DNA from: Marsupella aquatica
Lineage: Eukaryota > Plantae > Marchantiophyta
NCBI GenBank assembly: GCA_973895155.1
Contig: OZ316896.1
Coordinates: 20,262,754-20,326,753 of the forward strand
Length of the DNA: 64,000 nucleotides
Reading direction: 5' to 3'
Below the pieces are notes generated by a model that made no database searches, was not told the origin of the DNA, and saw nothing but the letters and a program-made list of their open reading frames with translations. The translations under genes and the position numbers were made by a program. Positions 4,401 through 34,983 of the stretch are shown here, one piece after another. The number at the start of each line of letters is the position of its first letter. Positions within the stretch are counted from its first letter, which is position 1.

Positions 4401-5502
4401 GCAAGCTATAACTCTAGTTCATATTCCTTTGTTAGATGTGTCTTCTAAGAAGAAAGATGCAAATAGGATTGCTACAAAGATACAAGAGGAAACAATGGAG
4501 GTTATGGGGGGGGGGGACCACGAACCTAGTCAAACCATTTTGAGAAGAGCAATTGTTTCTATCTTCCATTGCAGTGTGCTACAATTTGGTAGACATTGTA
4601 AATAAAGTTGTACAAATTAAAGGCTTAATCTACTATGGTTGCCTCATCATCTCACCTAGCTTATTGCATGACTGTGGGCATATTGTTAAGAATTCTCATC
4701 GTACGAATCATACAAATACCTTGTAACAAAAATGTGAGCCATTTTATTATGATTTACCTTCTTAGTGTTTGGTTCACAGCCTTTTCAAAATTTTCTAGGT
4801 TGCTCCACCTTTTTTGAGGGGCAGCTCCTTCCTTTCACTTTCATAAACCATTCATGTTGTAAATTAAAATTGTGTCCTATATAGCCCTTGTTTTTCTGCA
4901 TATATTGGACAGCATGGCTGTAGTACCAGCTAAAAAGTAATAATAAAGGTGTTTCATGCAAAGGTGCTCCATATGGAAAACTTGGGGTCCAACAACTTAG
5001 CACGTATGGATGAATAGTTTAATTTGCAAAATAACCTCAAATAATCGATGTTTATACTAGGTCTTTGTGATGCACAAATTAAAAGAGCCCATTGTCCACC
5101 CTCCTCTGCTCTACTCTACTTTTAATTTTTTGGCCAAATTCAAAGCCTTGTTGCTCGGATGATTCTCTTGCGACTACTGTATGTTGAAGGTGAGCCCCAA
5201 CAAGCTCTTCTTGATAATTTCCTCTTGTCCAGCTAAGATCATCAGTACATTGTCAAATAATAAAAATAATTGCAATAGTCCTCATCACTATATAGAGAAC
5301 TAACTTTTAACGTCTGATAGCAAGTTGGTCCACCTCCATGCCAAGGTGCTAACTAAGGCATGCAGAGGTGGCACTCCACAACTATTGCTCACAAAAAGGC
5401 CTCTACTTAGACAAATTTAGTGACTCTTGCATTCGGAGGGTTAAGATATGCATACTCAATGATTTGAGAAAGAGCGTTACCAAAATGCAGATTCGGGGCA
5501 AC

Positions 5503-6189
5503 ATTGGATTTGAGGGACGGGAGGATTAATTTCATGAAAATTTAAGACAAACAAATGAGGCACAGTGTATGGTCTAAAATAATATTTTGGCAGTTGGGGG
5601 CAGTATGAACTATCAGGGGGCGCGCAGGCGGTGTGTGATAAAGTGATTATTCCTAGAAGGGGTTTAAGTATGAAATTGAGAAATTTCCAAACTTTTCAAA
5701 CCTTACATAGTGCATTATGGGGACAGAAAGATCTTTGAGTAACGTCAAGATGGCAAAGACATTGTGGCTGACCCAAATATTAGTGATGTCCCTTGAGTAA
5801 GGAGGTCCAGCCTATGACCAAAGAATGGCTTTTGCTTAAAGCAATATTGGATTTGAGGGACAAGAGTATTTCATGCAAATTTAAGACAAACAAACGAGGC
5901 AGAGTGTATGGTCTAAAATAATATTTTGGCAGTTTGGGGCATTGTGAACTATCAACTATTGCTAGGGGCAGGAGGTGTGTGATATAGTGGTTATTCCTAG
6001 AAGGGGTATAAAGTATTCAATTGGAAAATTTTTTAACTTTTCAAACCTTACATGGTGTTTAATGAGGACGGCAATATCTTTGAGTAAAGTCAAGATGACA
6101 AAGACATTGTGGTCGGCCCAAATATTAGTTATGTTCCGCAAGTAGGGAGGTCCAGCCTATGACCAAAGAACGGACTTAATTCGCTTAAA
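5503..6189. repeat. Diverged tandem duplication, ~343-bp unit x2
   Basis: Units start attggatttgagggac at 5503 and 5846. They share gtgtatggtctaaaataatattttggcagtt and gaggtccagcctatgaccaaagaa. Confidence 0.9.
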
Positions 6190-8248
6190 CCAAGGCGGCC
6201 AGGACGGCAATAAGGTGAAGTCCCCTTTGTAAAGGTGTCTGAGTGGGACATTCACCATTTCTCGACATAAACGGCCAAGAGAGACCGGGAGGAGCCAAAA
6301 GAGGCTTGGATTTTACCTTGCACATATGTAAGCTTCCACAATCCTAGTGTATCAATTGTCTGAGTTTTTCTAAGTGTCTACATTGTATTAAGGCCAAAGT
6401 AACCTAGCTTGGAAGATTACATGAATAGATACAAAAGACTTTTATTATAGTTTCATTTATCATAGTGAATTGTTGTCCATCCACAAAGAAGGTTGTCAGT
6501 TTGTCACCTTGATCAGCTCACCCAACCAAAGGGCCCAATGTGTAGGCACAACCACATCAGCTAACAACTATCATGGCTAGCAGAAGCCACAACTCAAGAG
6601 GTCCACATTACTGATTAACAAAAATAAATGAAGAATGAATTTGAGTACTGTGCAGATCTATCAGAAGAGGATCATCTTGGTAGTAAGCATGTGTGTTTGT
6701 GAGTGCCAGACTAAATGTGGACTTGGTCGTATTCTAACTGTGTCAATACTAACTCGTGCTTGTCTTTGAAACCCACTTTGTTTACCCACTTTGGAATGCA
6801 TTTATATGCATGCCCATTGCATTATTTACCTTGTGTTAATATTTCAAAACATATAGCTTAAAGGTGGCCCCAATTCATGCACATTTTTCCCTGAAAAGTG
6901 CCTATCTATGGCAAATTACTAGTAAGATGTGCCCCGGTCAGTCAGAACTGAATCAACTACACAACTATTTGGGAGATATATAATATAATAAACAAAGTAG
7001 CTGACCGGGTTACAAAAATTACAAATGACTAAACATAGCCTAACTTCAAGTTCATGTCAATTATATAGGTCAGATTCATTTCTTCTCTGGCTATGGAAAA
7101 TTCAAAGACATTCTGATTAATGAACTAATTTAGTAACCTAGGTGTCCCTTGTTCATGACGCCCACCTTGGAAAGAAGGCGTGAGTCTCTCAAGCTAACAT
7201 GTCTCATCACAAAATTTACCTGCAAAATAGAAAGTAAGGTAATTGTTAAACAAAGAATAAGAGTTCAATCAAAAGCAAGACAAACAACGAGTCTAATCCA
7301 TAGCGAATTAACAGACACATGCAATATACATTAAACCCAAACTAATAAAATAATACAACTAGCAATTATATCTACTTTAAGATTTATTAAAATAAAATGT
7401 AATACATCACATTTTGTAAGTTCCCTATAAGAACTTACTTCATGTGTGGCCAGTTCTATTTTTGATAGTCTGGAGTGTCTGGTCCAAGGTATTCAAAGCC
7501 CATGACCTTTCTTCTGGCAAATCATTAAAATTTAGTTGTTGATGTACATAGGCTGTCAACCCCATAGTGGCACGAGAATTACTTTCACATTCAAGAGAAA
7601 GCAGCAAATGCATTCTGAACTTGTCCTCCTCTGATAAGACTCCAATCTGATTAGTTTCATATGCAAAATCACGGATATCACGAAGACTCTGCATCCACAA
7701 AAAAGAATTTGGTGAATTGGAAATTAATGAAAAGAATATGCAACCAAATAAAATACATTTTGCTTCACTTACTACATCGTCTAAATCTTTAACACCATGT
7801 TCAAAGTTTCCATGATCATCATTATGATTCCAATAATCAGTGCCAATAGTCTCGATAATATCATTTGCATCTTGAATATCAACTTGACCTTCTTCAGGAT
7901 ATGGTGGAGGTAAAACTATTTTAGATTCTCTCTCTCTCTCTCTCTTGCTTGAAAAGCAAGTTGAGGAATGTGTGATGGTCTGTTCACACCTCGTTCTTGC
8001 ACCGCTCTCACTGTATGGGCATTCCATGTTAGAATGATATCATTTATAGCATTCTGAATGAATGGAAGAAGTACAGTAACAATGGAGTATCTATGCAACG
8101 GATTATCCATTTGCAAAAATCCTTCCTCGTATGATAGAGTACGAAATAAGTCCTTAAAATGACCCAATCCTTGTTTCTTCAAGAATCCCCATTTGAAATG
8201 CTTCGATCCTCTGTAAAAATCACAATGATTGTAAAAAATTAGTATGTT

Positions 8249-8443
8249 CCTTGAAATTCTTTTTCCCTTTTATAAGTTAAAGCCACAAAAACCCCGTGGC
8301 AGAGGGGAAACAACCAGGCCATAAAAAAGCCAACTAAACAACATGACCCCTGGGAGGGCGGGCAGAAAGCATTAACAACGTACACAGACAACAAATCATC
8401 ATCGCGGCCAATGCAACATTGGGCCCCCATAAGTCCCATAGGC
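8249..8443 (-). mobile_element. Short, probably 5'-truncated non-LTR (L1-type 3' UTR) insertion in an intron of the transposase gene
   Basis: Flanked by a perfect 16-bp direct repeat aaaaaattagtatgtt (8233-8248 and 8444-8459). T/G-rich on the minus strand, like the L1 3' end at ~37400-37620. Confidence 0.6.
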
Positions 8444-9855
8444 AAAAAATTAGTATGTTAATAAACATATCAAGCAAATAATTTTGATAACATATAGTTG
8501 AGTTTAAGTACTATCTGATTATGAACTGAAGAACCTTTGCGAAAACAATGAGTATTTGGTCTTGCCCTTTCAAGATTATTTTGGACCAAAATATGCTCAG
8601 TCGCATAATCAGAACGAATTAATAAAGGATGATAAAATCTTTGAACCGCATTTTTATACCCTTCATAAATAGTCCGGGCTTTCTTATTTACAGCTTTTAA
8701 GTAGGTTGCCACTAAAGATGATTCAAATCACAATATTGCCACTACTTTTTCTGTATTTACAAATATGCCACACTTTTCCTCTATGCTTACTTGAGTTAAC
8801 TATAGTGCCGCGTGTTTCCTTAAGATTGGATCTAATTTCTGTCCAGGTTGTTTTCGGTTAGAGTTTATGAACCTTTGTTTCTTTTGGTTCAGTCGCCTCA
8901 ACTCACTGTGGTGAACAAAGCCCCGGTGCGCGGGGAATTTCATTTTCAAACACACTCAATGCGGATGAATGTAGGTCATCTTAGTTTCACGCAAAAATAG
9001 CAGAGAATGTGAAAGCCACAAAATGAAACGCAGGGAATGCTTGTCGTGTGGGATGGCAATCACCAAAAATGCAATGGGAAAGTAATTTGATCGAGTAGTG
9101 TGCAAGGTTTAACAACGAAAGTTGAACAAGCTACGAGATCACCAGCACATGGTCTGCGAGCTTTAATTATCTAAGTGTGAGCACACCTGGACACCTGGAT
9201 TTCTGCGAGCTTTGACATTAGGGTCTTGATTAGGGTGCCTGATATATTCTGCGGCGCAACATTATCTTGACGGTGCCGTGCTCTGGAGAGGAGAGGATTG
9301 GAGCTCTTGCAAATTATTCCAATGGAGTGTGTTGCAATTGTTCACTGTCGCTGAAGTTCCCTGGTATGTGCAAAATCTTGATTCTTACATAGACTGCCTG
9401 CAGACACCGATTCGAATGGTTTGCCAGTGTTATGCTAATCTTAACCCTTCGCAGCTATATTTTGAGGGAGATTGGACGATTGGTCTTTTTTAATTTAGTT
9501 TCTTTGTTCAAATCACAATTACAATGACTCGCCCAGATTTCCCTATTGTCGGTGACTATATATGCTTACCTTGATCAACGTTTACCCCTATATAATCTAC
9601 TCGATCAATGCATGCGTCTATCATAGAGATGCTCGGATTTATCACATAGATGCTCGGATTTGCGCTTCTATTTGGTGCAGGACATTTCACCTACATGAAC
9701 CCATTTTTGGGCACCTCAATTTGTCAATGAAAGCATGCTCCTTGAATAGGGACCTAGATTACGCCCTGCCCGTGGAGTCGATTTCACTGCTGATTAAATC
9801 TATGTGGCTGGTTTGGTTTTCTCAATGCAGGTTGCCGAAGTCATAAATTCGAGCC

Positions 9856-10929
9856 ATGGCTAATGCTGTTCTGAAGAAGGGCAACACGTTTGAGAGCTGG
9901 CAGGTAGTGAGGCGGGCAATTGTGAAACATGGGGTCTCGACAGAACATGTAATAAGTACATACAAAAAGGACTCTCTTTGTTTTCTTGGAAAGTGCAAAA
10001 TGTGGTGGCATGAAAACCCTACTAAAAAATGTGTGTGGTCAATCAGAGTGATAATGAGCTCTAAGACGGAAACGCTTACTGTGACTCAACTCAATGACCA
10101 CCATAATTGTTGTGCCGCAGACCATTACAATAGACGAATGCATAATTCCTCAGATTACTTAGCTACTTTAATCTTTGACATTCTCATAAAAAATAGGCAG
10201 ACTCGAGCTTGCTCTTTGAGAGACACAGCCCAAGCTATTTTACATCCTGATGTGAGGTATCACACAGCCCATGCAGCCAAAAAGAGAGGTATTATCAGGC
10301 TAGATGGTGATGAGAAGGAATCCTTCCACTTGATTCCAAGCCATTGTCATCATATTTTACACAGGGACCCTACTGCCATGGCAAATTAAGTACTCAGCAC
10401 CTACTGGATCTTTTGAGACTTTGTTTGTGTGCCCTTCAGCTTCTCGAGAGGCTTTTTCACATTGTCGACCACTCATTGCTTTAGATGGCACACACACAAA
10501 GTCAGCATATCCTCAAATGTTATTGGTGGCCACAATTCTAGATGCTAATAACACTGTCATGATTCTATCATATTGTATGGCTCCATTAGAGAATGAGCAA
10601 TACTGGATGAGATTTTTGACCTTGTTGCATGATGCTATCCCAGAGTTGTCCGCTTCAAACACAGTTTTTATTTCAGACAGAGAGAAGGGGCTTCACAATG
10701 CTGTGGATCATGTTTTCCCTAGGGCATTCCATGCTTTTTGCACATGGCACTTGGGGAAGAATCTACAGGCATACTCCAACAAGGCAGCGAGGAAAGCATT
10801 CGATGGACTCGTCTACGCTGCCAACAAAGATCAATTTCTGAGGAGATTGGACAGGATTGTGAGTTCCCATCAGCACATGACTACATTGTCAAAACTGCTG
10901 ATCCTGCTCATTACTCTAGAGCATTCATG
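9856..10929 (+). pseudogene. MULE transposase, N-terminal and DDE part (disrupted)
   Basis: CVWSIR...HHNC DNA-binding region, RPLIALDGTHTK, FISDREKGL and HAFCTWHLGKN motifs. Reading frame breaks near 10389. Confidence 0.92.
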
Positions 10930-10973
10930 CTAAACTGGCCTAGTCCAATAAATGTGCTCATATGGTCTATGTT

Positions 10974-11846
10974 CTATGAATGCAAATGAAATCCAGGGCT
11001 ACAACTAGCTAGAAGGGCTGTGAAGGAACCCATGTCAAAAGGACAAGTCAAAGATGGACCGCATTCATCTAATTCATCAACAAAAGGTGCAGATTGTTGT
11101 ATGTCTACTATATCCTGATTTGGCTCATCATGACCAGAGTCTGATTGGTCATTACCAATATCATGAACTTCCTTGCCCTGCCCAGGTCCAATGTGATCTT
11201 TTCGAAGCTGGCAAGTTCGTCTATCGTGCCCTCTTTGCTTAAAACCGCAAGTCCTGGGCAAGCGGACGCCATTTTTTTCTGGAAACCTCAGCCTGGGTTT
11301 CTCAGTTGGACGTCCTCGTTTTCTACGCTTCAAAGGTGGCCCGCACCAGGCATCAGGTTCCAAATCATCCTTCAAAATAGCTGTGATGCTACCACTGTAT
11401 GTACGTCTGAATGAATCTGATGAATAAAAATGTGACACAAAATCATAATGTCGTAGGTGCAACCTGGTAATGGCTCTCCAAGCATGAATGCATGGAATCC
11501 CAACATCCTGCCAATCTCCACAGGAACATTCCTTCACTGGCTCCAAATTGACTAGAAAATGTCGACCATCTGAATCTGTAATTCTAACTTCTGTAGGGCT
11601 AGATGGGTCTGCAACAAGTTGGTATGATTCCTCATGTCTTTCCCTCAATATAGCCATGATATTGGGAGGGAATGGTGTAGTCAGCGACTCAGCAAGAGTC
11701 CTCTTCTCATAGTATTGCTTCATCATGTAGTCCCAAATAAGATTTGACTGCTTGAATGCTACTTCTTGGCATTCAGATTTTAGTGCTCGATTTTTACTCT
11801 TTGCTTGCTGAGATGTCTCATGACCCCACCTAACACAGGTTTCCAA
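10974..11846 (-). pseudogene. MULE transposase C-terminal part (SWIM finger, zinc-knuckle remnant), inverted relative to its N-terminal half
   Basis: RWGHETSQQAKSKN (TSNxAES-like), CSCGDWQDVGIPCIHA SWIM motif, KRGRP, and GHDRRTC. Confidence 0.9.
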
Positions 11847-12316
11847 TGTTAGTCATGCCTCACAGAAGAACAACAAATTCAAAAGGAATGATGGAATAAT
11901 GAGCATGACAATGTGGATGATTTTTACCTATGACAAGTTCATGTAATGTGCAAATAATTGTCATTCATTATTTTTCATTTCAGCCTCAGCCTCATTTACA
12001 CTGTGCCTACTGTAGTCTGTCAAAGTTGTTGTGTCTTATGTAGTCCGTTTGTATGTAAATGCTTGACAAAACCAAATTGTGATCATTTCACAAACACTAA
12101 TGCTCTAAGAGACATTGATCAAATGCAACTAGGTCTCAACATTTCTCAATTGGAAATCCAATTTTTATTCATAATAAAGCACAAAATACATTCCGGTAGC
12201 AAGGAGCAGTATCTGCAAGTGGACATATGTATGGCCTATGCTATGGCCTGTTGTGTCTACAAAAGCTTGCCCACTATCTATGCATTAAGTTGCTTGTAAA
12301 GCTACACACTATTGAA

Positions 12317-13140
12317 TTATTTCTCATAGACCTTCATGGTCCCAGGCTGCTCATGGAAATAATACACCCCAAATAGATTTCCAATAGTGGATTTCCAATC
12401 ATCTAGATCACTTGGCACCCACTTATGAATGCCATACACAGCAAATCCACTTTTGCCATTCACAGTCTCCAAGTAAAACAATTCATACACCACAAGAGCA
12501 TCAGTCTCCTCACGAAAGCAATAGCACAAATCTCCATCTCGGAATTTCTTGCCCTCAAGTAAAATCTCAGCAGGATTTCCAAACTGAATCTTCTGCTGCT
12601 GTCCAAGCTAACAATCGTCAAAACGGAAAATATAAGTACGCCCAATGTTGTCACTCCGTTCCACAACCCAGAATTCAAAGTCAGTTGGGCGTATCCAAGC
12701 TCGGCTCATGTCATTCCGACTGGACGAGACAAGGTTCCACTTCCACTTGGCATTTGTGAGGAAGGAGTGATACTCCTGTATGTATTCTTCCATGGCAGCT
12801 TGCGTGAAGCAACAGGATTGTATCTCATTTGTCATAGGGAGCCTGAAATAAAGCACCCACACAATTTAAATGTAGCATTGAAAATAGCAAAGTGAATGGA
12901 CCAAACCACTGCAACAGCAAGTAAATGTACAGTTGTTAGCATATTGAATTGAAAGCAAAATTTGGTGATTGGAGTTGGAACAGAGTATACCTATCCCATG
13001 GGGGCCTAAAAGCAGGGTTGACCCGCTTCCTCAATGAATTGACTGTCTCCTTTACTGGATTGAAAACCGGCACCTTAGCCACCTTGCCCCACTGAATCGA
13101 TGATCCGGCGGCCATTGAAAATTGAAGATTCCCGGGATGG
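12317..13140 (-). pseudogene. Second, convergent gene of the MULE, function unknown (fragmented)
   Basis: Consecutive protein-like minus-strand ORF pieces (12317-12529, 12608-12862, 12936-13223) with splice-like boundaries. Position matches the usual second MULE gene. Confidence 0.45.
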
Positions 13141-14956
13141 CTGTACAAAATCAATGTAAGAGTGAAGACGTAAGATAGTTGACCATCATGAAAGCCAGTT
13201 GCCATTAAAGGATAGTTTGGCATCTATTTATGTGGAAGGACTCACTCAAACAGTTGGCTATTGACTGCTTACTACTTCTTGGTCAGTATCTTAACATCAG
13301 CAAGAAACTAGACACAATCCTTTGCCAAACATTGCTACGCAAATGGAGCTAATGGCAACAAGTGAATGCAATTAGTAATGCAACTGAATACTCAATCATC
13401 TAGAAATAGAATCAACACATAAACGCAAGTGTAGGGAGGCCCACTGACAATGCACCTATTTGTGGAATCAGCAGCTTCAATCGCATCCAACGTACGTCCA
13501 AGCAGGTTGCGTCTAATGTTAGCACAACACTACGCTCGATCAGGCTATCGTCCAATGTCAAAGAATGTGCTGCACTCAGGCTATCATCCAATGTAGGTGT
13601 TGTGCTCAACGCATTGTTTCATCTCCAACATTCCCTTTGAAAAACACAGACTGTGTTGCAGACATTTCATTCACAAGACTCCTTTGATGTTTCCTTTGGT
13701 GTTTCCCTCCATGTTTCCCTCTACCCTAACGCTGTTTTTGAAATGTTAACAGTGGTATAGTGGCCTGAGTCAGGGGAACGGGACAGTCAATGAGTCAACG
13801 TGTTTCTACTGCCATGAACGGATGTTAACCCATGGTTAAAGAATTCCGTTACTCGAGTAAGCATAGAGGAATTTAAGTGTGGCATATTTGTAAATACAGA
13901 AAAAGTAGTGGCAGTATTGTGATTTGAATCATCTTTAGTGGCAACCTACTTAAAAGCTATTCTTATTTAATGTAACATGCATATACATAACATAATGTGT
14001 AGCTCCATCGATAGCTCCATGAATTCTAATTCCATAATTTGCTAATTTGTCATATGCTGCACAAGAAATTAAACAAAATTAGTACATAATTTCATGATCA
14101 TGAACAAACTATCTGAATCGTATATAGTCAAAAAATGATTGATTCAATCTAAATAAAGGATATAAATACTTGAATTTTACTCACAGTCCATATGCGAAAT
14201 ATGCATTGCTTCAGTGACATCGTAAACCCGACGTATTAGACATCCGCGTGCTCTTGATGCAAGTAATCCTGGAACTAAAACATCCAAGGCATCACGTACA
14301 AGCGTTCTTGAAACTTTGTATCCAGCTCTTTTTAATTGTGCCTTTATCATTCTTATTCCCCAATCTTTTGCATATCCATATATGGGAATAAACTCTAGAA
14401 TCAATTGCCGAACCTCCTCAACCGTATATGTTGGATACATTTTCTCTCCATTACTAAATACTTTCAACCATCGCCATAAGGTAATTCGATCTATTTCCAA
14501 GTGCTAATGCACATTCCTTCATAGTGTAACCAATGTGAAGTGCTGTCATCACATCTTCACATATTGAATTGATGTTTGCTGCATCCATATATTTCCCAAA
14601 TATTCTCCAAAACTCCAATGAACTAATACTTTATTTTGCCAGCGTATAATTCCACCTTTTTTAGAACAATTACAGAACTCTGTTAGAAAAACAAAGGTCA
14701 CGAGACAAAAAAACAAGGCTAGTTAGAAGATGTACACTAAGTTGCCATTGCACATACAATAAAGTAGGAATATTTTTAGCAAAAGATACCCTAGATTTAC
14801 AAAGACTATGGAGGGCTACCACCTTTGGTCTATTCAATGCCCCAATTTAAGCTCTTGAGATCATCTATTACAAAAATAAGCAAAGATACAAATGGGCAAA
14901 CAAAATCAATATATAACATAAAAAATTCTGCTCATTATCATGACTATGAATCATGT

Positions 14957-16298
14957 TTATGCATTTTCATTTGAAAATGTGTAGGCACCACCTAGCTTTT
15001 CATTAATTGCAATCCCAACTACGTATACCGGTTCTATAGGAGAACATCTGTACGAGGTGGCGTGTATATCTTTTCCACGAAGAAAGAAAATATCCCCATC
15101 TAATATTGGAATCTTTATTCCATACTCAATAACAACTAGATGTCCACCTCGTTCCTCCATTGAGGGATTTGATGCCATGAACATAGTGTATTTACTACAA
15201 TCATGATCATTATGAACTATATTACAGTAGTTCTTTGTAAGAAATAGAGGATATGTTGGTACTGCATGTTTCACAACGTCGGGCTTGGAAAAGTATTGAA
15301 GTAATTCTTTGCTTAGATCCATGAAAGGATCTTTGCAATCCAAAAATTCCCTCACTACCGGCCAAAAATAATCACAAAATAATAGGAAAATAATTTCAAA
15401 TAAGATTTGATGGGAGCATTGCTCATGAATTAACTCCAATTGCAATGCGCTAATCAGAGTTGTATCAACAATCTTTAACTTATCCCTGTAGTAACTCACA
15501 AAATGTGCTCCTTTTCCTTCTCTCCAATTCACAAGTGGCCCCACAGCTCGCATTGTTTCAATCAATGTTGATCTCAAATTAGCTCTACGAACAGTCCATT
15601 TGTGATTGTAGGCATCAATTATTGAATGTCGTAGAAATGGTCGATCACCCTCTGGAATAACTCCTTTCATATGTCCCCCTATTATTTCATTGGTAGAAAG
15701 ATCAATAGATGACAAGGGATCCATAACATAAAAGTTACTTGGTATCACCTTCCATACAATATGTCGTTATGTTTTGGGTGGACTAAATCCTCTCTCAATC
15801 AAGAAAGCATTTTTATGTTTCACAAGAAACTTTGGGCTTCTCTTCGCAAATGTCTTTATTGAGATTTAATGTTCTTCAAATTTTTCAAAATGATCTGCCT
15901 TCCGATTTATATATAAAATTAGATCTTTACAAAATTTCCGGACCCTAGTGGCAATCTCATTCCCAAGCAAAGATAGATTGTACCGGAAAGTGATCAAGTG
16001 GACTATTATTTTCCACTGATTGACAGTAAAATACTCAGACCAACGACCGGTTTTCCCCAAGAAGTGAAAACCAGAATAAAATTTTGATAACTCTCCCTTC
16101 ATTTTCCCACCGGAAAAGATGTGAACACCATATTCAAAGAGTAACCAATCACCGAGCAACCATTTCAGTAAAAACTGAATATGTAATTTTCTCAACTGAG
16201 ATGTAAGAGTGATGAGCTCACAGAAATAAATAGCACCCTTAGGAAGAGGTTGGCTTTTGGTGATGTCTGTTCGATTTTGATGATCATTAAATTGAATC
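14957..16298 (-). pseudogene. Last exon encoding a TET/JBP-like Fe(II) dioxygenase (double-stranded beta-helix) domain
   Basis: ORFs 15866-16303 and 14957-15748 share one frame, separated only by two TAA codons. Motifs: LFLTKNYCNIVHNDHD (HxD, His at 15212-15214), GGHLVVIEYGIKIPILDGDIFFLRGKDIHAT (distal His at 15062-15064). Splice acceptor tgtgcag precedes 16298. Confidence 0.75.
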
Positions 16299-17220
16299 TG
16301 CACAAATAAGATTATTGATCAACATAAAGTGATAAAGAACTTTTACTAATTTATTATAGTTTACTAGTTAATCAATATTTTGTTTGACATCTTGGACCAT
16401 AGTGAAATCAAATAGAATTCGAAGCATATCAACGCCAGGCACTGAGGATTCCAACAAAAATAATTTGAAAGTTTCACCCCCCCCCGGAATATCAATTCCT
16501 CTTGATTTTACTCACAAAACTATGGTCTCCAAAATATAGCAATATAATGATGATAATGAATATCTTATAATAGATTGTATACTATTGGCAACAAGGTAAG
16601 ATTCTTACCCTTTCATCAGATTTGGGAGAAGTTTGCCTTTTCTTTCCCCTTCTTTCATTTACTTTTGCATCATTGTTACTCAATTTTAAGTCTTTCATCG
16701 AATCTGCAATGAATGACAATCTATCCTGAATATCAACTTTTTCATGTAATTGTTCAAACAAAAAATAACACTAACCATTCACATATCAATCACAGGTACT
16801 TATTTGACACATAGAATTACTTTCTACAGCCTAATCTTTACGTATGTCTATTTCTTGACATAATTATTTTGGATATTGTTTGTATTAACGTATTCCAAAC
16901 TCCATCAACAAATACAAAATTGAAGTATGCAAATTGCATGCATGCAACAATAGATGAGGCAAAAAGAGAAATGGTCACCTCGTCACCACAAATTAGCCAG
17001 TTTTCCAAATCCAAAGTTGTCTTCAAAATTGATATCTCTGCACTTTCCAAAAAATATATCAAGCTTAAGGTCCCATTGGCCCTAATACAAAATCTAGTGG
17101 ATCCAAGTTACTATGAGTCCTCCAAAATATTCTCAATAAAATTTAAAATTTTTCACTCTTTTGTCCTTTCCTAATTTGATGGCCTATGGTGTTTTAGTCA
17201 AAGAGTCTATTGGATAAACT

Positions 17221-18200
17221 TTAGAACCAAAAAATATGATCACGAACAGGGGTCTGCAAAGTGGGATCAATGGGATGGAGATGACAATAAAGAACCATCT
17301 GTCAACTCCATGGGCACTATGATCATATATCTTTCGATCCTCGGGGGTCTCACTATATGGATGCCTCCCATCACCTGCGACGGTTTTAGGCCTCGGACCC
17401 CCTAAAATATAAGAAATTATTTTTATTTTTCAACCCCTATAAAGTTGGAATATTCTTGGAATATTCCAAAATTTTGGTTATAAGGACCCTAATGTTCTTA
17501 TAAGTCTCAAAATTGGATTTAAGAGACCGTATTGTTCTTCTCAGAAAATTCTTAAGTCTTCCCTTCGAACCAATAAAATGACCCTATACTTTGTCGCACA
17601 TGATATGCCATTTTTGGGAAGTGAAACCCCGGAGTTTTGATCGCAAACATATCCTTTTGCCTGACATTCCTTCAAACAGTAAAAATGCCACATTGTGGGG
17701 CATCGAATGCAATGGACAATATCTGTCCAATTGAGGTCATCATGTTTACCACATGCCTTGCATGTATGTAACGGGCAGATAGGGGTGTGTGATGGCAAAC
17801 GCGCACCGCAAAAAAACCTTACACAAAATCTATCTGAACATTTTCGAACATATTGTGGAGAGTCAAGAGGACCCTCCAAATTCCCCAACTTTCCACATTG
17901 GGCACAGTTTGCATGTTTATATATGCAGTCTTTGCACTTCCACTTCCCATGTTGGCCAGAAGGTGGGGGAAGGCCGACCCCTGGACAGTTATTCTCTGCT
18001 ACATGCAGAGATTAAAGTGTCTCTGAAAGCATGGTCCATCACAAATGACTAACTCTCCACCATCATCACAAATGGCACAACAATGGGCTGCTTTTTGGTA
18101 GATTTGTTCGCGTGAAAAACTTCAAAACATGTGGTCCAAACACAGCTGAATGTCTCACCTCGCCCTTATCTTTTCTACATGGTTGTTTAGGACGAGCCAT
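17221..18200 (-). pseudogene. EDM2/NSD-type PHD-finger cluster, frameshifted and interrupted by a MITE; likely the 5' part of the dioxygenase gene
   Basis: CAICDDGGELVICDGPC, WKCKDCIYKHANCAQCGKLG, KCSDRFCVRFF, CPLHTCKAC, CIRCPTMWHFYCL. Beyond the MITE it reads VLYCHLHPIDPTLQTPVRDHIFW, resembling the recalled EDM2 YC...HEID...TPVRDH tail. Confidence 0.82.
17340..17634. mobile_element. MITE with CTC-GGGG termini and 8-bp TSD
   Basis: Ends ctcgggggtctcact and agtgaaaccccggag. TSD tttcgatc / ttttgatc (7 of 8). Homologous to 35329-35626 in the opposite orientation. Confidence 0.88.
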
Positions 18201-18369
18201 GCCTGCACACCATAAACAAAATTAATTGTTAGAAATCACCAAAAAATTGGGATTTAAACTCAGAACTAACAAATCATCAAAAATACACAATAATACTACT
18301 ATTCAACGAGCTATTCAAGATTTATGTACAAATTAGTTGCATACTTCAATCTACATAACAAGTCCAAGT

Positions 18370-19380
18370 ACATGTTGTTCTCTTAGCCATGCAGGTCCCT
18401 CACAAGATGGTGGTATAATAAGAGTCGTGGCTGCCGAATGTCCCTTCTTTGAACTACTCAGAAACAAAATTAATATTCACTAAGGTAAGCAGGGTTTGAG
18501 AGATGGAACCAGAGATGGCAAAATTTCTAGAGCCACATTCCCTTAATAGAATGGGACCAAACTTTGCTTGCACATACCCCAGGTAGTAGACAACGTGTTG
18601 GTGAAGTAAGAACACCAACGAAGCTTTGGTTGAGAAATGAAAAATCAAAGCCTCCATGGGGTACTCCTGCATCCTAAGCAACCTTTGACTTCTCTCCCTT
18701 GCCACTATTCGAACCAGCTCCGACTTGCTAGATCTGCAGCCAAGTCCAAGTGCATGTTTTCCTCTTAGCCAGGTCCCTAACAAGATGGTGGTTCATAAGA
18801 GTCGTAGCTATCAAATGTCCCTACTTTGAAGTACTCAGAAACCTATCGTTCAGTAAGGGAAGGAACGTTTAAGAGATGGAAGCAGGGAGCATGGAATTTC
18901 TGGAGCCACAATATTCCCTAGACGAAATGGGACCAAACTTGGCCAGCACGTACCTCAAGTAGTAGACAATGTTTTGGCAAAGTTACAGCATGAACGGAGA
19001 TTTCATTGAGAAATGAAAAACCAGATGCTCCGAGGCAGTCCTCCTGCCTCCCAAGCCACCTTCGACTCCTCTCCCTTGCCACTATCTCAATCAGCTCGTA
19101 CTTGCTAGACCTGCAAACAAGTCCAACTACATTGTGTTCTCTCAGCCACGTCCCTAACAAGATGGTGGTATCACAGGAGTTGTAGTTGTTGAACGTCATT
19201 GCTTTGAAGTACTCAGAAATCAATCATTCAGTAAGGGAAGCAACGTTTAAGAGATGGAAGTAGGGAGCGTGGAATTTCTGGAGCCACATTCCCTGGACGG
19301 AATGGGACCAAACTCGGCCAGCACGTACCTCAAGTAGTAGACAATGTCCTGGCAAAGTTACAGCATGAACGGAGCTTGAG
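18370..19380 (-). repeat. Diverged 378-bp tandem repeat (~2.7 units) with residual coding potential (126-codon unit)
   Basis: gtccct(c/a)acaagatggtggt recurs at ~18395, ~18773 and ~19151. Minus-strand ORFs repeat LLGTWLR...GLxCRSSKxELxxIVARERS. Confidence 0.85.
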
Positions 19381-22300
19381 CTTTCACTGAGACATAAAAA
19401 ATTGGATGCTCCGAGGTGGTCCTCCTAACCAGTTTTGACTTCTGCTGCTTGCCAAGTCTATTTCGACTTCTCTCTTGCAAGGATTCAAAGGAGTGTTCGA
19501 CCAAGTTTGAGGGTGTGTCATCAGCTTCATTAACTTTAGTGTGTGACAATTTGTTGGCCGGTGATTTCCTTGGCGGCTCATCTCCCTCCTCAGGTTGGGT
19601 TGAAATGAATTGAACTCCTGATACGTTCGCTTGAAAGCCTTAGAAATAAAAACACATATAAGAAATCTCAATGGGTATGGCTACCTTATTTGGGAGCCTA
19701 CTGAAGTTACTTAATTTGTCCTATTGAGATTTTGTGTCTATGTTTTTGTTTTGAATTATTTTGTAAGATAACCATAAGGAACATAACAAACATGGAGCCT
19801 TAAGGGATGAGTCCAAGGCCCGAATTCCTTTTTCAAGATTTTCATGATTTTTCCAAAAGTGCTTTAAAAAAACATATAAAAATGAAACATGTTTTGTGAA
19901 CTTTGCTATTATAATTCTTTCAATGAAAATCTTGGGATATTTTCAACATCATTTTCACAATTACCAAAAATAACAAATCCATACTTAATTACAAACATAA
20001 AATTTACGGTCTTTGATCTGAGTTTGTGCAAACTCAAAATCTTAAGTAGAATGCCACTATCCATTGTAGGTGTGCATCTAAGTCCACTAAATCTCTAAAT
20101 ACAATGCAACTCAACTAATCTAAGGCTTCTCTAACCTCCTCTCCACTTCTAGAAGATCCTTGCTTCAATCCGAGCTAGCTCAATAGTTACATCTTCTGTT
20201 GCACCCTCTACTCTGGTGCGCTTCACGTCCTCCCCACTCTCTTGATCCATACCAATATTGAAATGTACATCGAGTTTGATTTGGGCAGCCACCTGGCTTC
20301 ATGAAATCATGAAGCCGGGTTCTCACCTGAAAGAAGCTACCTGATCCTCCTAGCTCCCTCCAGTTAGTTCCCCCAAGCTCGATAGTTCTCTTTGCTTCTG
20401 CTCCCAATCCACCCACCTTGGACTCATTTTTGACCCAGACCAGGCCTGGTCAACCCTTAATCCTCCCTGGATCAATCTTGATTCCCGATCGGCCCTCCCC
20501 TGGTCCCTGATTAGTGAAACCCTTCCCCAATCCTAAACCCTCCCCCCCAATCTTTTACCGCTCCCCCTCCAATGTTTGATCATCCCCTTGATGCTCGACT
20601 GCCCTCCTCCGGTGCTCCATCCCCCTCTGATGGTTGATCGTTCCCCTGACGGTCGATTGTCCACCCTCCTCCAATCCCTAAATGGCCCCCCTTCCAATCC
20701 CCTTCCAATCCTTATCAATCCCATTCCAATCTCCCTTGCTCCCTCTCCCATCCTCCACTTGCTCCCCCTTCAATCCTTAGGTCTGCTCGATTGAGATCTA
20801 GCTCTCAAGCTCAATTTTTCACAAATTATCCCTGATCCTTTGTGGCTATCTCCCCTAATTGGAATCTGTCTCATTTAATCAGAGTCTACCACAGCTAATT
20901 CAAGTAGCAGTCAATCACAGTAGAAGCTCATTCAATAACCAAATCTGAGAAATCAAAGTCCAACACTCAGGTGAAATCCAGCAATCAAAGCATCAACATC
21001 AAACCAGGAATTCAAAATTTCAGCTTCAGGATTTTGAAGGCGACAGCAGAGATTAGCAGTCGTTCCCAGACCATAAATTAGGCCTGACCTCAATCGGCAG
21101 CTGATGACAGCACCTTGATGCGACTTGAGCTTAAGTGAGGGGCAATAGCCCTCTCCAGGCCGCAGCCTCCTTTGCCATAGCCAATTGGCTACCCTAGCCC
21201 TTTGTAGGTCATTGAGCTTGCAACACAGTCTTTGCCCTTTGTATTTTGTCACAACCAGTTTTGGGCTTCATGAATTCATGAAGCTTTTGGTTTCTCAGTT
21301 TCCCAGGTGGTAGCCCCTTCATGAATTCATGAAAGAGAATAAGGTATCTTAGGGAGAGAATCTCCAGAATAGCCAAAAGAAAGACTTCAAAAGTGAAAGA
21401 AAAGGGGATAAAGACAAACCACTCAATCTCAAGAAATGCAAAAAATATGGTGAAATAAAAGCAAAAAGTGCTCCAAATGCCAATATTCCAAAAAGCATAT
21501 GGAAACAGTAGGTCAACAAGACAAACTCTCCAATCATGAGTCATGGAAGTACGTATCTTGGTGGGCAAAAACATATGGGTTTTTACTGGTGGGCAAAAAC
21601 ATATGGGTTTTTAATGCCAATGTTTATCCTCATGAAACTTGGGAATGCAAACCTAAAAATGATTTATTTCTCCAAGTAAACTGGATTGGGTAGTCCAAAC
21701 AATATTGTGAGATTAATAATTGAGCAATCTAGTAAAGGGAGGTATGGGGAAGGGAAAAGGCCCAAAGAAGCCCTAAGTTGCCCAACAAGCCAAAAAGTCA
21801 AAGGACTAAGATACCACCTAGTAGCCAAGAAGACTAATTAATAAAGTGTTGTGTCATAAAAAACTTTTGGAAATATAATTTTTTCAACTTTTTCCTTGAC
21901 TTGTTTATCTATGTCATGAAATGATTGGCTTAATTATTGAAAAATGATTTAAGCATTTCTTATTCATTTAAATTAGAGAAAGGACCAATTAAGTTCAAAT
22001 AGGCGTCCTCTATTCATGAAAACATGTTATTTCATTTGTTTCAAGTTAAAGGGTTTTTGCTCTTTTGTGTGTTTTGTCTACATTAAGTTCTTCTCACTCA
22101 TTTGAGAGCACTAGCCTCCCCGGGCGTTAAGTTCTATCCCATGTGGTTGAGACTAGTGTTAATTTGGGTGTCCGACTCAAGGGTCTTCAAGATAGTGGAC
22201 AGTTGAGAAAGCGGACTCATGAATTCATGAAGACCGATTGTAACAAGTTTCTAAAAACACTAAGTCCTGTCTCAAAACCAGATTGTTGTGCATTTTGGAA

Positions 22301-23697
22301 AGGTCAAGCGTTGCAACAAGCACCAAGGGGAGAGAGTGAATATGGTCATCTGACATCTCTCAAATTCCAGGAAGGTGTAAGAGCGCTGACACAAGCGGGG
22401 ACACAAGAAGACCTACTGAGGCTGCAAATAATTCCGGCAAGGAAAGGATCATCACAAGAAGGTCACCCGGGCACACTTGTATCATTTGGCTGAGATTGGA
22501 AGCCAATCAATATCAAGAAATTAACTTGAAGGGGAAGAATAAGAATTTGGAAGAGGTCCCCAAGAAGAGGTTGGGGGAGCCCAGTTGGGTCAATATGTTT
22601 GTGAAATTCAGATGTTGCCTAACAAATCAAACTCAGGCATGTTGAGAGCCAGGTTGAGAGTAAAAGAGGAGCCATTGAGTGATCTGATTTGGATCAGAAC
22701 GGGTACATTTGGAAGCGTAGGTGGTGAATTTATGGAGATATCATCTTCCATTGAAAAGTCTTCCTCAAAGAGTGAAGGGGCGCATGTTGGAGAGTCAAAA
22801 AGAGATCATATTTTATGAATTTGAATTTTTCCCAAGTCTAATGAATTATGGAGGTAATTTGATTGTTTGTTAAAAATACAAATCATGTTTTGGTAAAAAT
22901 TGCTAAAATGGCATAGTAAAATTATAGGTAGTAATTTTATCAAAAGTAAGTTGAGATCATTTTGTAATTAGGAGATGGTGAAAAAAGTGTGTCATTTTAA
23001 TACTTTCAGTTTGTTTTATAATTTTGTCAAAAAACAGGTAGTATTTTTGGCCACTTTTTTGCCATTTTCTTTGTTTCTGCAATTTTTTTACGAGAGTGCT
23101 TAGAGTTTGGGCTTGTTACTCACCCTTTAAGGCTTCTTGTTAACAATGAAAGGCTTATTTTACAAGGTTCCTTAGTTTTGGTTACCTTATGTTAATTAAA
23201 GAACATCACCATCAAACCCAAACCCAACCACCCGACATTAGTGGATACCAATGTCATAAACCCGGAGGACATTGCAAGAATTTTGTTAGTTAATTAAGCT
23301 CATATGAAACCAAATTAAACTGGTCCTCAAGACCTGGACCCACATATTGGTTATTGGTGAGAGTAAGGACTACAAGAATATATTGTACATAGAAAGGGCC
23401 AAACAAAGTACAAAGAAGAGCAAACAATATTTGTCCAACAAGTACAAAGACAAATTAAAGAAGCAGGTGCAACTTTGATTTCATTTTATTTAATAATGAG
23501 AGTGGTTATGCTTTTGTTTGATTACACTTTTCTTCTATGTGAAAGTGATGTGTCCTTCGTGACTGGCCCTTAGAGGAAAAGTAACTGGGAAGTCCAGTAT
23601 GGAAGTAAGAACCCAGTATGTTCTTGGTGGATGATCAACAATCCCGGGTCACGTCAATCCTATGGTGGAAGAGGTCCAAATTCCATTCACCAATGAT

Positions 23698-24040
23698 TGT
23701 TGAGTATAGACGACACTCGTAACGGTAAGCACATGACACATCCAACGCGCAAGTAGTCAACACAAGAGATACGTGGTTCACCTCCTCGAGGCTACGTCCA
23801 CAGAAACACACAAGAGAGCTTTACTGAACTCTAAGCCCGTCAGCTATACCAAGTCTCCACAGTGTAAGCTCTCCTCATCTCTCAAGTGACTCCATAACAA
23901 TGAGCCTAAGTTCCACTTATCCAAGCAAACACCATTTGGCATATAGTGTGCATCCTAGTTAATCTAACCACGTCTCCGACTATGGTTAGCCTAACTACGG
24001 TTACATGTCATAACCCTAGACCATGAGTAAATACCTAACA
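23698..24040 (-). repeat. 3' LTR of the copia element
   Basis: TGTTGAG...CCTAACA. About 15 substitutions plus a 3-bp indel against 33228-33573 (hand count). Confidence 0.95.
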
Positions 24041-24856
24041 ATCTCCCCCTTGACTCTGGTCTAGGGGAGAGTAATACTGCTAACCTATATGATTCCTCAA
24101 CGGGAAGTTCTGGACAAAAACCAACATGGTTTCCCCTCTCTAACTAGAGCAAACCAAAACTAAGCCGTAGCCTATTACTAGGAGTGAAGAAGAGCATATA
24201 TCAGTAATTACAGCAAATGTTAAGAAAAACCCTTACTTGTGATGCAATTGCAAAACCTGGAGCACGTCACGATGTCTAGAGAAACTTTTTGAAGGAATCA
24301 CTTTGGTAAATGCGTCAGCTGGGTTGAGTTTACCGTCTATCTTGACTAGCTCAAACAAATTATCAGACACAGCCTGCCTGATAAAATGGTACCTGACGTC
24401 TATGTGCTTCACTCTACTGTCCATCACCTGGTTCACAGCAAGGTGAAGGGCACTTTGACTATCACAATGGAGCTTCACATTCCCCTATGGCAATCCCATT
24501 TCAGTGATAAGTCTATCCAACCAAATCGCTTCCTTCATTGCTTCCGCTGTTGCAACATACTCCGCTTTTGTAGTAGACTGAGCAATTATACACTTCTGCA
24601 AAGTAGACCTCCAACTTATGCATCCACCGCCAAGTGTGAACACGTACCCTATTGTTGATCTCCTTTGGTCCAGATCTTGTCCATAGTCAGAATCTACATA
24701 GCCAATCAATGATCTCGCATTGTTTGCATTTGCATCAAATAAAAGACCATGATTCACGGTACCCTTCAAGTACCTGATAATCCACTTCACTGCTTCCCAG
24801 TGTACCTTCCCTGGATTCGACATGTACCTGCTCACCTTGCCCATAGCCATGGCAAG

Positions 24857-26769
24857 TGTAATGCTGTACATTTGTTAGAAATGATGGAAATTTTATAAAT
24901 TTTAAACTTTTTCTAACTCAAAGGTGCAATCTAGTTACCTTTTGTAGCAATTTAGATCAACTGAACACTTTACCTAATGTTATGCTTCATCGGAGACTAT
25001 TGCCTATATTGGACAAGGATCGCCAATATAAATCCTTGCTCTTTACATGCTACCAAGAAAGAAGACTAGACATCATTGGAGAAGCAATGCAGACTAGAAG
25101 ATTCAAGAACCGGACTCCAAAACACTTCTTGAGCAAGAATGAGCTCTGTATACAATTATCACAATCAGCCAATCTTTGCTATTTTAGTTAAATAGCTAAA
25201 GTAGTCATAAAAGTCTCATACTTTTTCAGGAGTTAGTAGTTACGTAGTAGAATCATCCCTAAAAGTTTCATCTCAAACCGACATGTGGTTTGAAAGTTAA
25301 AATTATTTTAGTTTAACTATTTTTTACATAGCCGCGACTTCGCCGACGCTTTGAGAAAAGTCCTTTGTATTTTTGGACGCTTTGAAAAGCGTCCACCCAA
25401 GACCACGACGCTTTCTGAAGTGTCCGCCACCCAACCAGTTGTACTCCGACGCTCTGCAATCCACATGAGGAGCGACGCCCACAGAAGCGTCCGCTACCCC
25501 GAAGGCGACATCGACACTGCGACGCCACTGAAGCGTCCCGCCCAAAGACCAGAAGACAAACGCTGCGGCCAAGACATCAAAGTTTCGACGACGCTTTCTG
25601 AAGCGTCCACCAAAAGTCCTTTGTAGTTTGGACGCTTTCTGAAGCGTCCACTATGTTCCCGACACTTAGAAATATTTTCGTTTTTCGCACTTTTATAACA
25701 CTGCACCACTTTTGCCAATTTATTTGAGGCACTTAGAAGTCTCAGAAAAGTCTGAAACTTTGTCAGCATAGAGATTATATGTAGTAGAGTATCCTAGAAA
25801 AGTTTCAACTCATTCCGACTTTTATTGTAGAAGTTAAAATTAGATTAAAACCATTGTTTATTAGTTTTACCGGAAAACACCGACGCTCTACAAAGCGTCC
25901 ACTAAGTCTCCAATGCATTTCTTTATTTCTTTTAGGATTATCTTTTTAGATATTTGAGGTTTGAAAAGTCATGCCTTTTCAGTTAAGGGAACCTTTACCT
26001 ATAAAACCTCATGGTTTATCCTTTACCAAAGGTGGGAAACAATTCCAATTAGACTTCTGTTAGTTTCCCATCCTTCCATTTTAACAAGAGAAGTCTTGTA
26101 TGGAAGTAAAACTTATGTTTGAATTTATGAATTCAAGAAATTTCTTGATACTTGAATTCAGTTACAAGCTTCTGTGACTTACATTGAGTTCACTGCTAGG
26201 CTTGCTTGAAGGGTCAAGATTCGCTAGCTAATTCAAGAGTTGTTGTTTGATATGTGAGAAGTAAAGTTTGGTTCTCAGAGTATTCAGTACCGTTACTTTG
26301 TTTATGGAATATGATTTAGTGTTTGACGGAATTGCGTATCGCTGATGTCAAACCATGTTGCCGGCATCTTAAGTCATATCAATACATTTGTAACCAGAGC
26401 AGTACTTGTTTAGCAAATTGGAAATTCCTTATCATGCAATTTTATTTAGTCAGGAGAGAAATTAGTGAGTTATGAGACTTGTTTTATGTCTATTCTAAGA
26501 CCATAGTCCTTTTTTAAGGAGTGGCAATAGCTAATCAGAGTTTTCAGACCATAAATTACTCTCTCTCGACTCATAAGACAGAAGTTTATTTACTTTGGTG
26601 TTTTGTTTATTTGATCTTTTAGTGAGAAACAAGAAATCTATGTGCTGAGAGCTTTAGATTACTCAGAGAGATAAATTCATTCAATTCTTTCCAAATCTGT
26701 TCTTAAAGGGATCGAATTCCGAGTCTTTATGTAAAAAGTGTTTCTTTTGGTTCTTCTGGCTATACGACA
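24857..26769. mobile_element. Probable solo LTR (~1.9 kb) of an unrelated family, inserted in the copia RT
   Basis: TGTAAT...ACGACA ends and 5-bp TSD GCAAG (24852-24856, 26770-26774). Removing it restores TRPDLAMAMGKVSRYM. Confidence 0.88.
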
Positions 26770-33213: not shown

Positions 33214-33225
33214 GCTCTGATACCA
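33214..33225 (-). promoter_or_regulatory. Primer binding site for initiator tRNA-Met
   Basis: TGGTATCAGAGC on the minus strand, 2 nt from the 5' LTR. Confidence 0.92.
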
Positions 33226-33227
33226 AT

Positions 33228-34890: not shown

Positions 34891-34983
34891 AAAAATTCTT
34901 AAGGACTTCCCTTCAAACCAATAAAACAACCCTATACTTCATCACACGTGATGTGCCAATTTTGTGGAAGTGAAACCCCCGAG
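34891..34983. mobile_element. Unpaired terminus of the CTC-GGGG TIR family
   Basis: ~90 bp homologous to 17545-17634, ending agtgaaacccccgag. No matching left end found. Confidence 0.7.

Follow-up and report, generated by a model that had tools for sequence, protein, structure and literature searches.

A dead IS3EU/GingerRoot transposon in the liverwort Marsupella aquatica with genes for a TET/JBP-like dioxygenase and a stand-alone triple PHD-finger protein

The stretch of Marsupella aquatica DNA analysed here (the window; 64,000 nt) holds a dead copy of a cut-and-paste transposon, very probably multi-copy, of the IS3EU/GingerRoot type, which occupies 2256..39644 on the minus strand (37,389 bp, nested insertions included). 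In addition to its DDE transposase gene, the element carries two passengers, one encoding a TET/JBP-like dioxygenase and the other a triple PHD-finger protein. We lean towards the view that the two passengers are an anti-silencing kit, whose task would be to modify methylcytosines in the silenced DNA of the element itself. An intact 479-aa homologue of the dioxygenase (51% identity) offers a concrete candidate for expression and assay, in a transposon that has defined ends and, very probably, multiplied recently. An earlier note on this DNA had described co-oriented minus-strand genes within 7440..19620, with the dioxygenase stop followed by the transposase ATG at 14588, and the sequence confirms this arrangement.

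The element is delimited by terminal inverted repeats (TIRs) at 2256..2308 (plus strand, the element 3′ end, starting TACGGAAT) and 39592..39644 (minus strand, the 5′ end), a pair matching over 53 nt at 81%. It is flanked by a 6-bp target site duplication (TSD), GATGTG, at 2250..2255 and 39645..39650 (both plus strand). Its ends, TACGG...CCGTA, fit the rule published for IS3EU (PMC12730594): TAYGG..CCRTA, a TIR of more than 30 bp and a 6-bp TSD. Among the 4538 TAYGG...CCRTA pairs that the whole window contains at spacings above 1 kb, this is the only one with a perfect 6-bp TSD, and it also has the best TIR match (28/30, with the runner-up at 19/30). The termini, TIRs and TSD make up the IS3EU/GingerRoot signature. 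The earlier note could not find the termini, which lie well beyond the region it had delineated. Membership in KDZ or Plavaka, groups defined by a KDZ or CMCT-type transposase and a TSD of 7–8 bp or 2–3 bp, is rejected, as the element has an rva_4 transposase and a 6-bp TSD. An 18-nt pattern from the TIR also occurs in five viral contigs; we regard this as chance, and the similarity ends there.

TET-carrying IS3EU elements are known in rust fungi (Pucciniales) and in the truffle Tuber indicum (Kojima 2025, PMC12730594). They share with the Marsupella element the form of the ends, the TIR and TSD lengths, the IS3EU transposase and a TET/JBP passenger adjoining it, which in three fungal families has the same orientation. 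Several of them start TACGGAAG; the Marsupella element starts as given above. The element described here differs in having a land plant as its host, in its third gene, which encodes triple PHD fingers where the fungal elements have an oppositely oriented alpha-kinase gene, and in its size (~19–22 kb, versus 8–13 kb among the fungal elements compared; PMC12730594). The Marsupella dioxygenase is also unlike fungal TETs in its long N-terminal part and in scoring below the cut-off of the PU-type Pfam model. The earlier interpretation stands in part: an IS3EU-type plant element, very probably multi-copy, does carry both passengers, but an undescribed transposon family is not supported, as the superfamily is known in mosses and lycophytes and TET-bearing IS3EU elements have been published.

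The transposase gene (7440..14588, minus strand) was reconstructed by splicing, with inferred exons 14588-14185, 14056-13960 joined to 8680-8515 across a nested Mutator-like element (MULE), 8210-7773, and 7688-7440. Two pieces match PF24764 (rva_4) above the cut-off (E = 1.2e-6 and 3.6e-6), and PF13276 (HTH_21) matches weakly upstream of the core (E = 0.0067). The core is an integrase-like, rva_4-type DDE domain without an upstream HHCC motif; its catalytic residues in the spliced reconstruction are D at 14188, D at 8610 and E at 8204. Frameshifts near 14499, 8160 and 7920 disrupt the gene, as do the MULE and a splice donor that reads AT at 8514. Counted by eye, 47 of 92 positions of the core are identical to the DDE domain of the Selaginella GingerRoot Sl-GR-005 (sequence printed in PMC6839031). 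GingerRoot, which is of the same lineage as IS3EU (PMC10045372), is known from Selaginella lepidophylla and mosses (Cerbin et al. 2019, PMC6839031). The Marsupella element shares with it the TA..TA ends, the 6-bp TSD and a non-seed-plant host as well as the DDE core. It differs in its shorter TIR (53–80 bp versus 100–150 bp) and in exceeding the size range of 3.9–12.9 kb given in PMC6839031; the main text of that paper mentions neither a dioxygenase nor a PHD gene.

Contigs from public sequencing runs rise ~2.6–4.8-fold in depth at both element ends, with median element/flank ratios of 4.0 in run X1, 4.8 in X2 and 2.6 in X4, contig depth not being the same as true copy number. In X2, contigs of the flanks and MULE junctions have depths of 10–19, and element contigs and joints 48–72. 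Other copies lack two of the nested insertions: a MULE-free joint, 8680-13960, is found in all four runs, and a joint lacking a nested copia retrotransposon, 23690-33572, in three of the four. These depth steps, along with contigs joined across the MULE and copia, indicate that near-identical copies are likely at other loci, and we consider further copies elsewhere, and recent cut-and-paste movement, very probable. The joints are not explained as alleles, as flanks and MULE junctions are equally deep, and in X2 the joints exceed them ~5-fold. One variant contig (X1 record 8, 14644-15208, depth 304, 21 letters different) reaches from the 3′ end of the dioxygenase gene into the leader of the transposase. 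No intact copy that has the full set of three genes came to light.

Since TET-bearing IS3EU elements are known in fungi, the element could be a fungal or other contaminant, or a chimeric assembly, and not part of the plant genome. This is very improbable: contigs with zero differences cross both junctions in X2 (1500-2281 and 39582-40500), the element contains plant-type copia and MULE insertions and two copies of one MITE, the transposase is close to that of a lycophyte GingerRoot, and the window runs on into plant genes for a pectinesterase and an NB-ARC-LRR protein. The earlier note had named unlinked genes, a single-copy host dioxygenase and contamination as outcomes that would undo its reading; where these could be tested, we find both genes between TIRs with a TSD, depth pointing to more copies, and plant flanks.

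The dioxygenase gene (14957..16698, minus strand) has two inferred exons, 16698-16609 and a long exon, 16297-14957, and ends with a stop codon at 14959-14957. The HxD...H motif previously noticed is present as a predicted iron triad of H15214, D15208 and H15064. Two in-frame TAA codons, at 15868 and 15769, break the gene; this copy is dead, as had been supposed from its stops and frameshifts. HMMER gave 32 matches, from which P0031 was removed as a repetitive bacterial-type surface protein, and the family comprises ~30 clusters, almost all unnamed. In an alignment of 26 rows, the first His and the Asp of the triad are each conserved in 24/25 rows and the distal His in 19/19 rows with a residue. 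All 30 named matches in the ESM Atlas are TET-related (29 Tet_JBP and one Tet-like 2OG-FeII_Oxy_6). Five of 24 homologues match TET models below threshold (family members: Tet_JBP 2.9e-4, Oxy_6 1.4e-3), and every Pfam score of the dioxygenase is under the curated cut-off; in Pfam searches with P0001 and P0002 no TET model matched. A structural model from a two-sequence alignment has a low mean pLDDT of 31.7. On sequence grounds, the protein probably belongs in TET/JBP. No fused longer form was found among 2519 candidates of 840–2395 aa, which is weak evidence. Nor was any stretch confirmed in metagenomes (0/233 and 0/134) or viral contigs (0/166), and a tblastn search of phages returned no match.

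The residues that would hold 2-oxoglutarate depart from the TET pattern. As judged from the alignment, the second (C-terminal) 2-oxoglutarate Arg is absent, with R at that column in 1/21 rows, and the candidate for the first (N-terminal) Arg is uncertain (R in 5/15 rows). The predicted lack of this Arg lowers the case for a canonical TET, not that for a TET/JBP-like enzyme. It also bears on an alternative in which the element is the same but the chemistry is not: the enzyme might act as does CMD1, with ascorbate, to form 5-glyceryl-methylcytosine, or on another base, so that the product would be a self-mark and not ordinary demethylation. With CMD1 of Chlamydomonas reinhardtii (PDB 7CY4-7CY8) and TET/JBP (PF12851, PF20515) the family shares the HxD...H triad, a downstream Asp and a GG-x-F...YGI...HGT pattern, and CMD1 is the top PDB match of the family profile, at the catalytic motif. 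In CMD1 the C5 carboxyl of 2-oxoglutarate meets no basic residue that would hold it, and the enzyme is for this reason unable to use that co-substrate (PMC7854593), a parallel to a family without that Arg in sequence. The Asp downstream of HxD, which in CMD1 reads cytosine N4, is present in 24/24 rows of the alignment. However, the CMD1 match is weak (E = 0.015) and covers only 62 columns. A profile of the C-terminal part alone missed CMD1 and found just a beta-hydroxylase (E = 0.54), and single-ORF and two-sequence profiles gave only unrelated PDB matches. CMD1, moreover, has the Arg in sequence, sterically blocked, which makes the parallel loose; here the second Arg is absent and the gene is transposon-borne. 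An R or K directly past the distal His in 16/20 rows could stand in for the missing Arg, and some fungal PU-type TETs have a His there. We consider such other chemistry rather unlikely.

The second passenger is a stand-alone ORF for triple PHD fingers of the NSD/EDM2 type (17221..18200, minus strand), which runs from an ATG at 18200 to a stop at 17223-17221. The stop is shared with the intact homologues P0003 and P0004 (220–226 aa). The idea of a single gene running from repeats through PHD fingers and a linker into the dioxygenase, with reader and enzyme in one protein, is hence not upheld; these are separate ORFs. The PHD ORF has frameshifts near 18115, 18015 and 17292, and its exon is split by a MITE; contigs from all four public runs have indels that cancel the frameshifts near 18115 and 18015. 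P0004 matches, in order, PF23011, PF22908 and PF23004 (E = 2e-4 to 3e-3, all below the cut-off), and there are further matches to PHD fingers of NSD2 (E = 0.012) and AIRE. Among four candidates from the homologue search, two passed, both unnamed, and no EDM2 protein was recovered. A single-sequence model of a PHD homologue has a low pLDDT (37.3). The tandem atypical PHD fingers matching NSD-type Pfam models are a feature in common with Arabidopsis EDM2 and the NSD1/NSD2 cassette, and a direct similarity of the ORF to EDM2 itself is presumed. The encoded protein differs from EDM2 in consisting of PHD fingers only, at ~226 aa, without the methyltransferase-like (ELP) and other domains. EDM2 has NSD1-type PHD fingers (PMC3776765) and binds H3K9me2 chromatin (PMC7529245).

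As the PHD protein has its own ORF, it could instead be an integration-targeting factor, steering the transposase to marked, gene-poor chromatin independently of the dioxygenase, a role compatible with an anti-silencing enzyme. GingerRoots are found in gene-poor, Gypsy-rich regions and are without a chromodomain (PMC6839031), and the present copy sits among retroelements. This is nevertheless a single insertion site, and the absence of a PHD gene from the GingerRoot main text suggests that the site preference may not need one (PMC6839031); we regard such targeting as unlikely.

It is also conceivable that the transposon picked up both passengers passively, as Pack-type cargo made of host-gene pieces, and that they do nothing for it. 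Host fragments are reported for 22 of 77 Selaginella GingerRoots (PMC6839031), and GC content is 0.44 in the PHD region, higher than in the dioxygenase (0.36) or the transposase exon (0.39). Against this, each passenger is a complete ORF whose intact homologues, at 51–66% identity, keep the same start, stop and metal ligands, while the captured fragments described in that paper measure 84–1654 bp and are 79–98% identical to their parents. No named plant host gene is among 21 dioxygenase or PHD clusters checked (one being the unrelated P0031); the names they carry are limited to one protein from Planoprotostelium and "hypothetical protein", the latter twice. Passive capture is improbable.

Under the anti-silencing reading that we prefer, expression of the three ORFs in intact copies would start in the 5′ arm. 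In all three, the start codon is the first ATG to follow a strong AG acceptor, which makes splicing from a shared leader plausible. At silenced copies the PHD protein would attach to H3 tails that bear a mark, in the way that EDM2 binds H3K9me2 chromatin, the dioxygenase would oxidise or otherwise change 5mC there, and maintenance methylation would be weakened, so that the transposase is transcribed. Expression, H3 binding and 5mC alteration taken jointly make a slightly favoured, if more weakly inferred, proposal, in which the heterochromatin targeting and methylcytosine activity already suggested by the earlier note are likewise inferences. The CpG observed/expected ratio of the element is 0.27–0.58, versus 0.71 for 40–64 kb of the window. 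This depletion implies that the element DNA was methylated over its history, which we counted against anti-silencing. TET cargo occurs in 11 fungal transposon lineages, for which anti-silencing has been proposed, unvalidated (PMC12730594). The VANC factors of VANDAL MULEs are also encoded by plant transposons and proposed to counter methylation, with tandem repeats in non-coding parts (PMC5735166); they belong to another superfamily, and the candidate here is a predicted base-modifying enzyme.

We found in print neither TET cargo in a land-plant transposon nor a PHD gene in such elements. If our reading is true, the TET-cargo strategy would reach from fungi into land plants, with a chromatin-reader gene as an addition not described for such elements, and the dioxygenase may bring new cytosine chemistry. 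A broader and distinctly tentative version would be that bryophyte GingerRoots carry a widespread new TET/JBP branch without the canonical 2-oxoglutarate Arg, together with a hijacked EDM2-type reader. Active copies might then write oxidised or CMD1-like cytosine on their own heterochromatin, giving land plants an enzymatic, transposon-borne modified 5mC.

Without the MULE, the copia and one MITE, the element measures ~21.9 kb, and ~18.6 kb if a 3.35-kb insert is also removed. The MULE that had been recognised within the gene region (8691..13959) has 84-nt TIRs (99%) and a perfect 10-bp TSD, TTCTTATTTA; it lies inside a transposase exon, and its removal closes the reading frame. For a putative L1 fragment within it, named in the earlier note, 12939-13223 had no Pfam match. 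The high-copy MITE in the PHD exon, also reported before, lies at 17340..17634, flanked by an 8-bp repeat matching at 7/8, and a second copy at 35329..35626 has a perfect 8-bp TSD, GAACAAAT. The 3.35-kb insert (19790..23140), near-identical and of higher depth, has TAACAA and a short, imperfect inverted repeat at its borders, and the decayed copia LTR retrotransposon (23698..33572, minus strand) has a 5-bp TSD, ATGAT. An L1-like fragment in the 5′ arm, identified by eye (35855..37600, plus strand), showed no TSD, and its first ORF had no Pfam match. Upstream of the PHD ORF is a tandem array of three 375–378-bp units (18392..19420), once read as coding 126-codon repeats. It is likely non-coding: each of the six frames has 10–17 stops, and in the frame of the earlier note there is no excess of substitutions at third positions. 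Contig joints suggest that the number of array units differs between copies.

The window contains a bounded IS3EU/GingerRoot insertion (2256–39644) with three co-oriented minus-strand genes, encoding a PHD protein, a dioxygenase and a transposase, all of them dead in this copy. That the copy is dead had been recognised in the earlier note. The long dioxygenase exon has two stops, and the PHD ORF has frameshifts. No termini had been found at that stage, but they do exist, well beyond the stretch then considered, as 53-nt inverted repeats that are 81% alike (2256–2308 and 39592–39644). The element starts with TACGG, finishes with CCGTA and has GATGTG on either side, hallmarks of IS3EU as the literature defines it (PMC12730594; PMC10045372). 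Of 4538 TAYGG...CCRTA pairs more than 1 kb apart in the whole window, only the element's own has a perfect 6-bp duplication; this pair is also the window's top 30-nt TIR match (28, with 19 for the runner-up).

The total length of 37.4 kb includes nested insertions: a MULE (8691–13959; 10-bp TSD), a copia element (23698–33572; 5-bp TSD; LTRs alike at 332 of 350 positions), a fragment resembling L1, two MITE copies flanked by 8-bp repeats, and a 3.35-kb insert (19790–23140) that lacks a long ORF and has TAACAA and a short, imperfectly matched inverted repeat at its edges. The MULE transposase (9847–11852) is rearranged, with its N-terminal and core parts on the plus strand and its SWIM part on the minus strand; an opposite-strand joint at 10928–12017 in one public sequencing run (X4) suggests an inversion in the window's MULE copy. 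The MULE interior also has a minus-strand frame of ~180 codons (12317–12865), with one stop and no Pfam match, possibly an accessory or cargo gene. The copia copy is related to a second LTR retrotransposon copy at 1–1310, and contains MITE-related sequence at 30700–31030.

The transposase pieces match the Pfam DDE family rva_4 above cut-off, and the core is in frame once spliced and freed of the MULE, with D, D and E at 14188, 8610 and 8204. Compared by eye with the GingerRoot DDE shown in PMC6839031, the core has the same residue at 47 of 92 positions; that paper places GingerRoot in lycophytes and mosses, and its main text does not mention PHD, dioxygenase, EDM2 or liverwort.

The PHD ORF, starting at 18200 and stopping at 17223–17221, encodes a separate protein of ~226 aa, because two intact homologues, P0003 and P0004 (64–66% over the query), begin and end at the same points. 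This stop argues against the single PHD–linker–dioxygenase gene proposed previously. Contigs from all four compared runs have one base fewer at 18115 and ten extra at 18013–18022, and therefore cancel two frameshifts of the window copy. Upstream, the 375–378-bp repeats, once read as 126 codons of coding sequence, have stops in all six frames and are likely non-coding. P0004 matches three NSD-type PHD Pfam models in order, all below cut-off, and the PDB matches of the protein are NSD2 and AIRE PHDs; its closer likeness we take to be to EDM2. EDM2 carries NSD1-type PHDs (PMC3776765) and binds H3K9me2 chromatin (PMC7529245). PHD-guided integration is a possible but rather improbable role for such a predicted reader.

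For the dioxygenase, three weak lines agree in pointing to TET/JBP membership. Atlas features point that way (one source, with a low recognition score in one look-up), TET-type Pfam matches occur in 5 of 24 homologues, all sub-threshold, and CMD1, the Chlamydomonas TET/JBP-family enzyme, is the top PDB match of a 26-row family profile (E 0.015). By eye, the motif order is that of the PU-type TETs in Table S1 of PMC12730594. No dioxygenase Pfam score reaches its curated cut-off, a C-terminal-only profile does not recover CMD1 from the PDB, and structure prediction gives no confident fold. A homologue of 479 aa is intact and shares 51% identity with the window protein, more in the C-terminal half. 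HMMER against 1.84 billion representatives gave 32 matches at E ≤0.001, one of which, P0031, is a false hit; nearly all homologues looked up are unnamed ORFs on short contigs. The most distant, a Planoprotostelium fungivorum hypothetical protein (PRP78645.1), lies on a long branch, with a weak Tet-like Pfam match and an Arg kept on the last strand. Aligned homologues nearly always keep the HxD...H iron triad and the Asp that follows HxD, and they lack the second 2-oxoglutarate Arg. More than one chemistry is possible, since CMD1, lacking a basic residue to hold the 2-oxoglutarate carboxyl, uses ascorbate (PMC7854593); even so, we consider CMD1-like or other chemistry unlikely, if slightly less so than guided integration.

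The dioxygenase–transposase stretch is present, whole or in part, in five public runs, four of which, from at most four samples of two studies, were compared as contigs, with depth used for contrast only and not as copy number. In X2, depth is 10–19 for contigs that match the flanks and MULE junctions without differences and 48–72 for element contigs. At the left terminus, a contig of depth 340 in X1 begins at 2255, next to a depth-75 flank contig; past 39855 on the right, depth drops three- to five-fold in all four runs. Contig joints skipping the MULE (four of four runs) and the copia (three of four) occur at element depth. Median element/unique depth ratios from hand-picked contigs are 4.0 in X1 (3 unique, 7 element), 4.8 in X2 (4 and 6) and 2.6 in X4 (2 and 6); X3, without a clear unique contig, was left out. 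Because the flanks and the MULE junctions are equally deep, the forms without insertions probably sit at other loci and are not alleles. We regard the element as real, bounded and multi-copy, and infer further copies elsewhere. Element contigs among those listed diverge from the window sequence by ~0.4–4%, which suggests recent spread; no listed contig of the four runs spans the whole element. A variant contig extends from within the dioxygenase to a point 56 bases ahead of the transposase ATG, and therefore the linkage holds in other copies. The 3.35-kb insert, with near-identical contigs at depth ~280–290 in X2 versus ~62 for the element, is a young repeat of higher copy number than the element.

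An anti-silencing function can be proposed. The genes would be expressed from the 5' arm, possibly through a shared non-coding leader spliced alternatively onto all three, as a strong 3' splice acceptor lies immediately ahead of the first ATG of each gene (14680, 16703, 18203). The predicted reader-guided dioxygenase would then modify 5mC on the element and relieve its silencing, a reading we favour by a modest degree. TET/JBP domains are commonly fused to chromatin domains (PMC4738411; PMC13519894). CpG is depleted across the element, which therefore did not permanently escape methylation. That the passengers are passive cargo seems to us quite unlikely. Apart from the anti-silencing proposal, both arms have subterminal repeats, ~90-bp tandem units at 38160–38620 (5') and a 340-bp duplication at 5529–6173 (3'), possibly binding sites for element proteins.

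The earlier note suggested that this may be an undescribed transposon family; IS3EU/GingerRoot elements are already in print, as are IS3EU elements with TET cargo. In the accessible literature on IS3EU, GingerRoot and bryophyte, land-plant or liverwort TET/JBP, no plant transposon is described as carrying a TET/JBP gene, and the available portions of a 2026 gene-capture review (PMC13317346) and of a preprint from the same year on how transposons counter silencing (10.64898/2026.08.24.746577) do not mention TET.

The window is land-plant DNA, probably from a bryophyte given its hydrolase-type NLR, and contamination is very improbable. To the right of the element lies a minus-strand pectinesterase gene (43034–46595; Pfam E 9e-12), with an 18-bp tandem repeat at 43475–43564. 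Farther on, a hydrolase-like ORF is followed by NB-ARC and LRR ORFs (54617–58858; Pfam E 8.5e-27 and 1.7e-27 for NB-ARC plus LRR). The alpha/beta-hydrolase match is weak (Pfam E 0.0064), and the ORFs are likely a hydrolase-type NLR immune receptor, a class over-represented among non-flowering plants and chiefly among bryophytes (PMC11218826).
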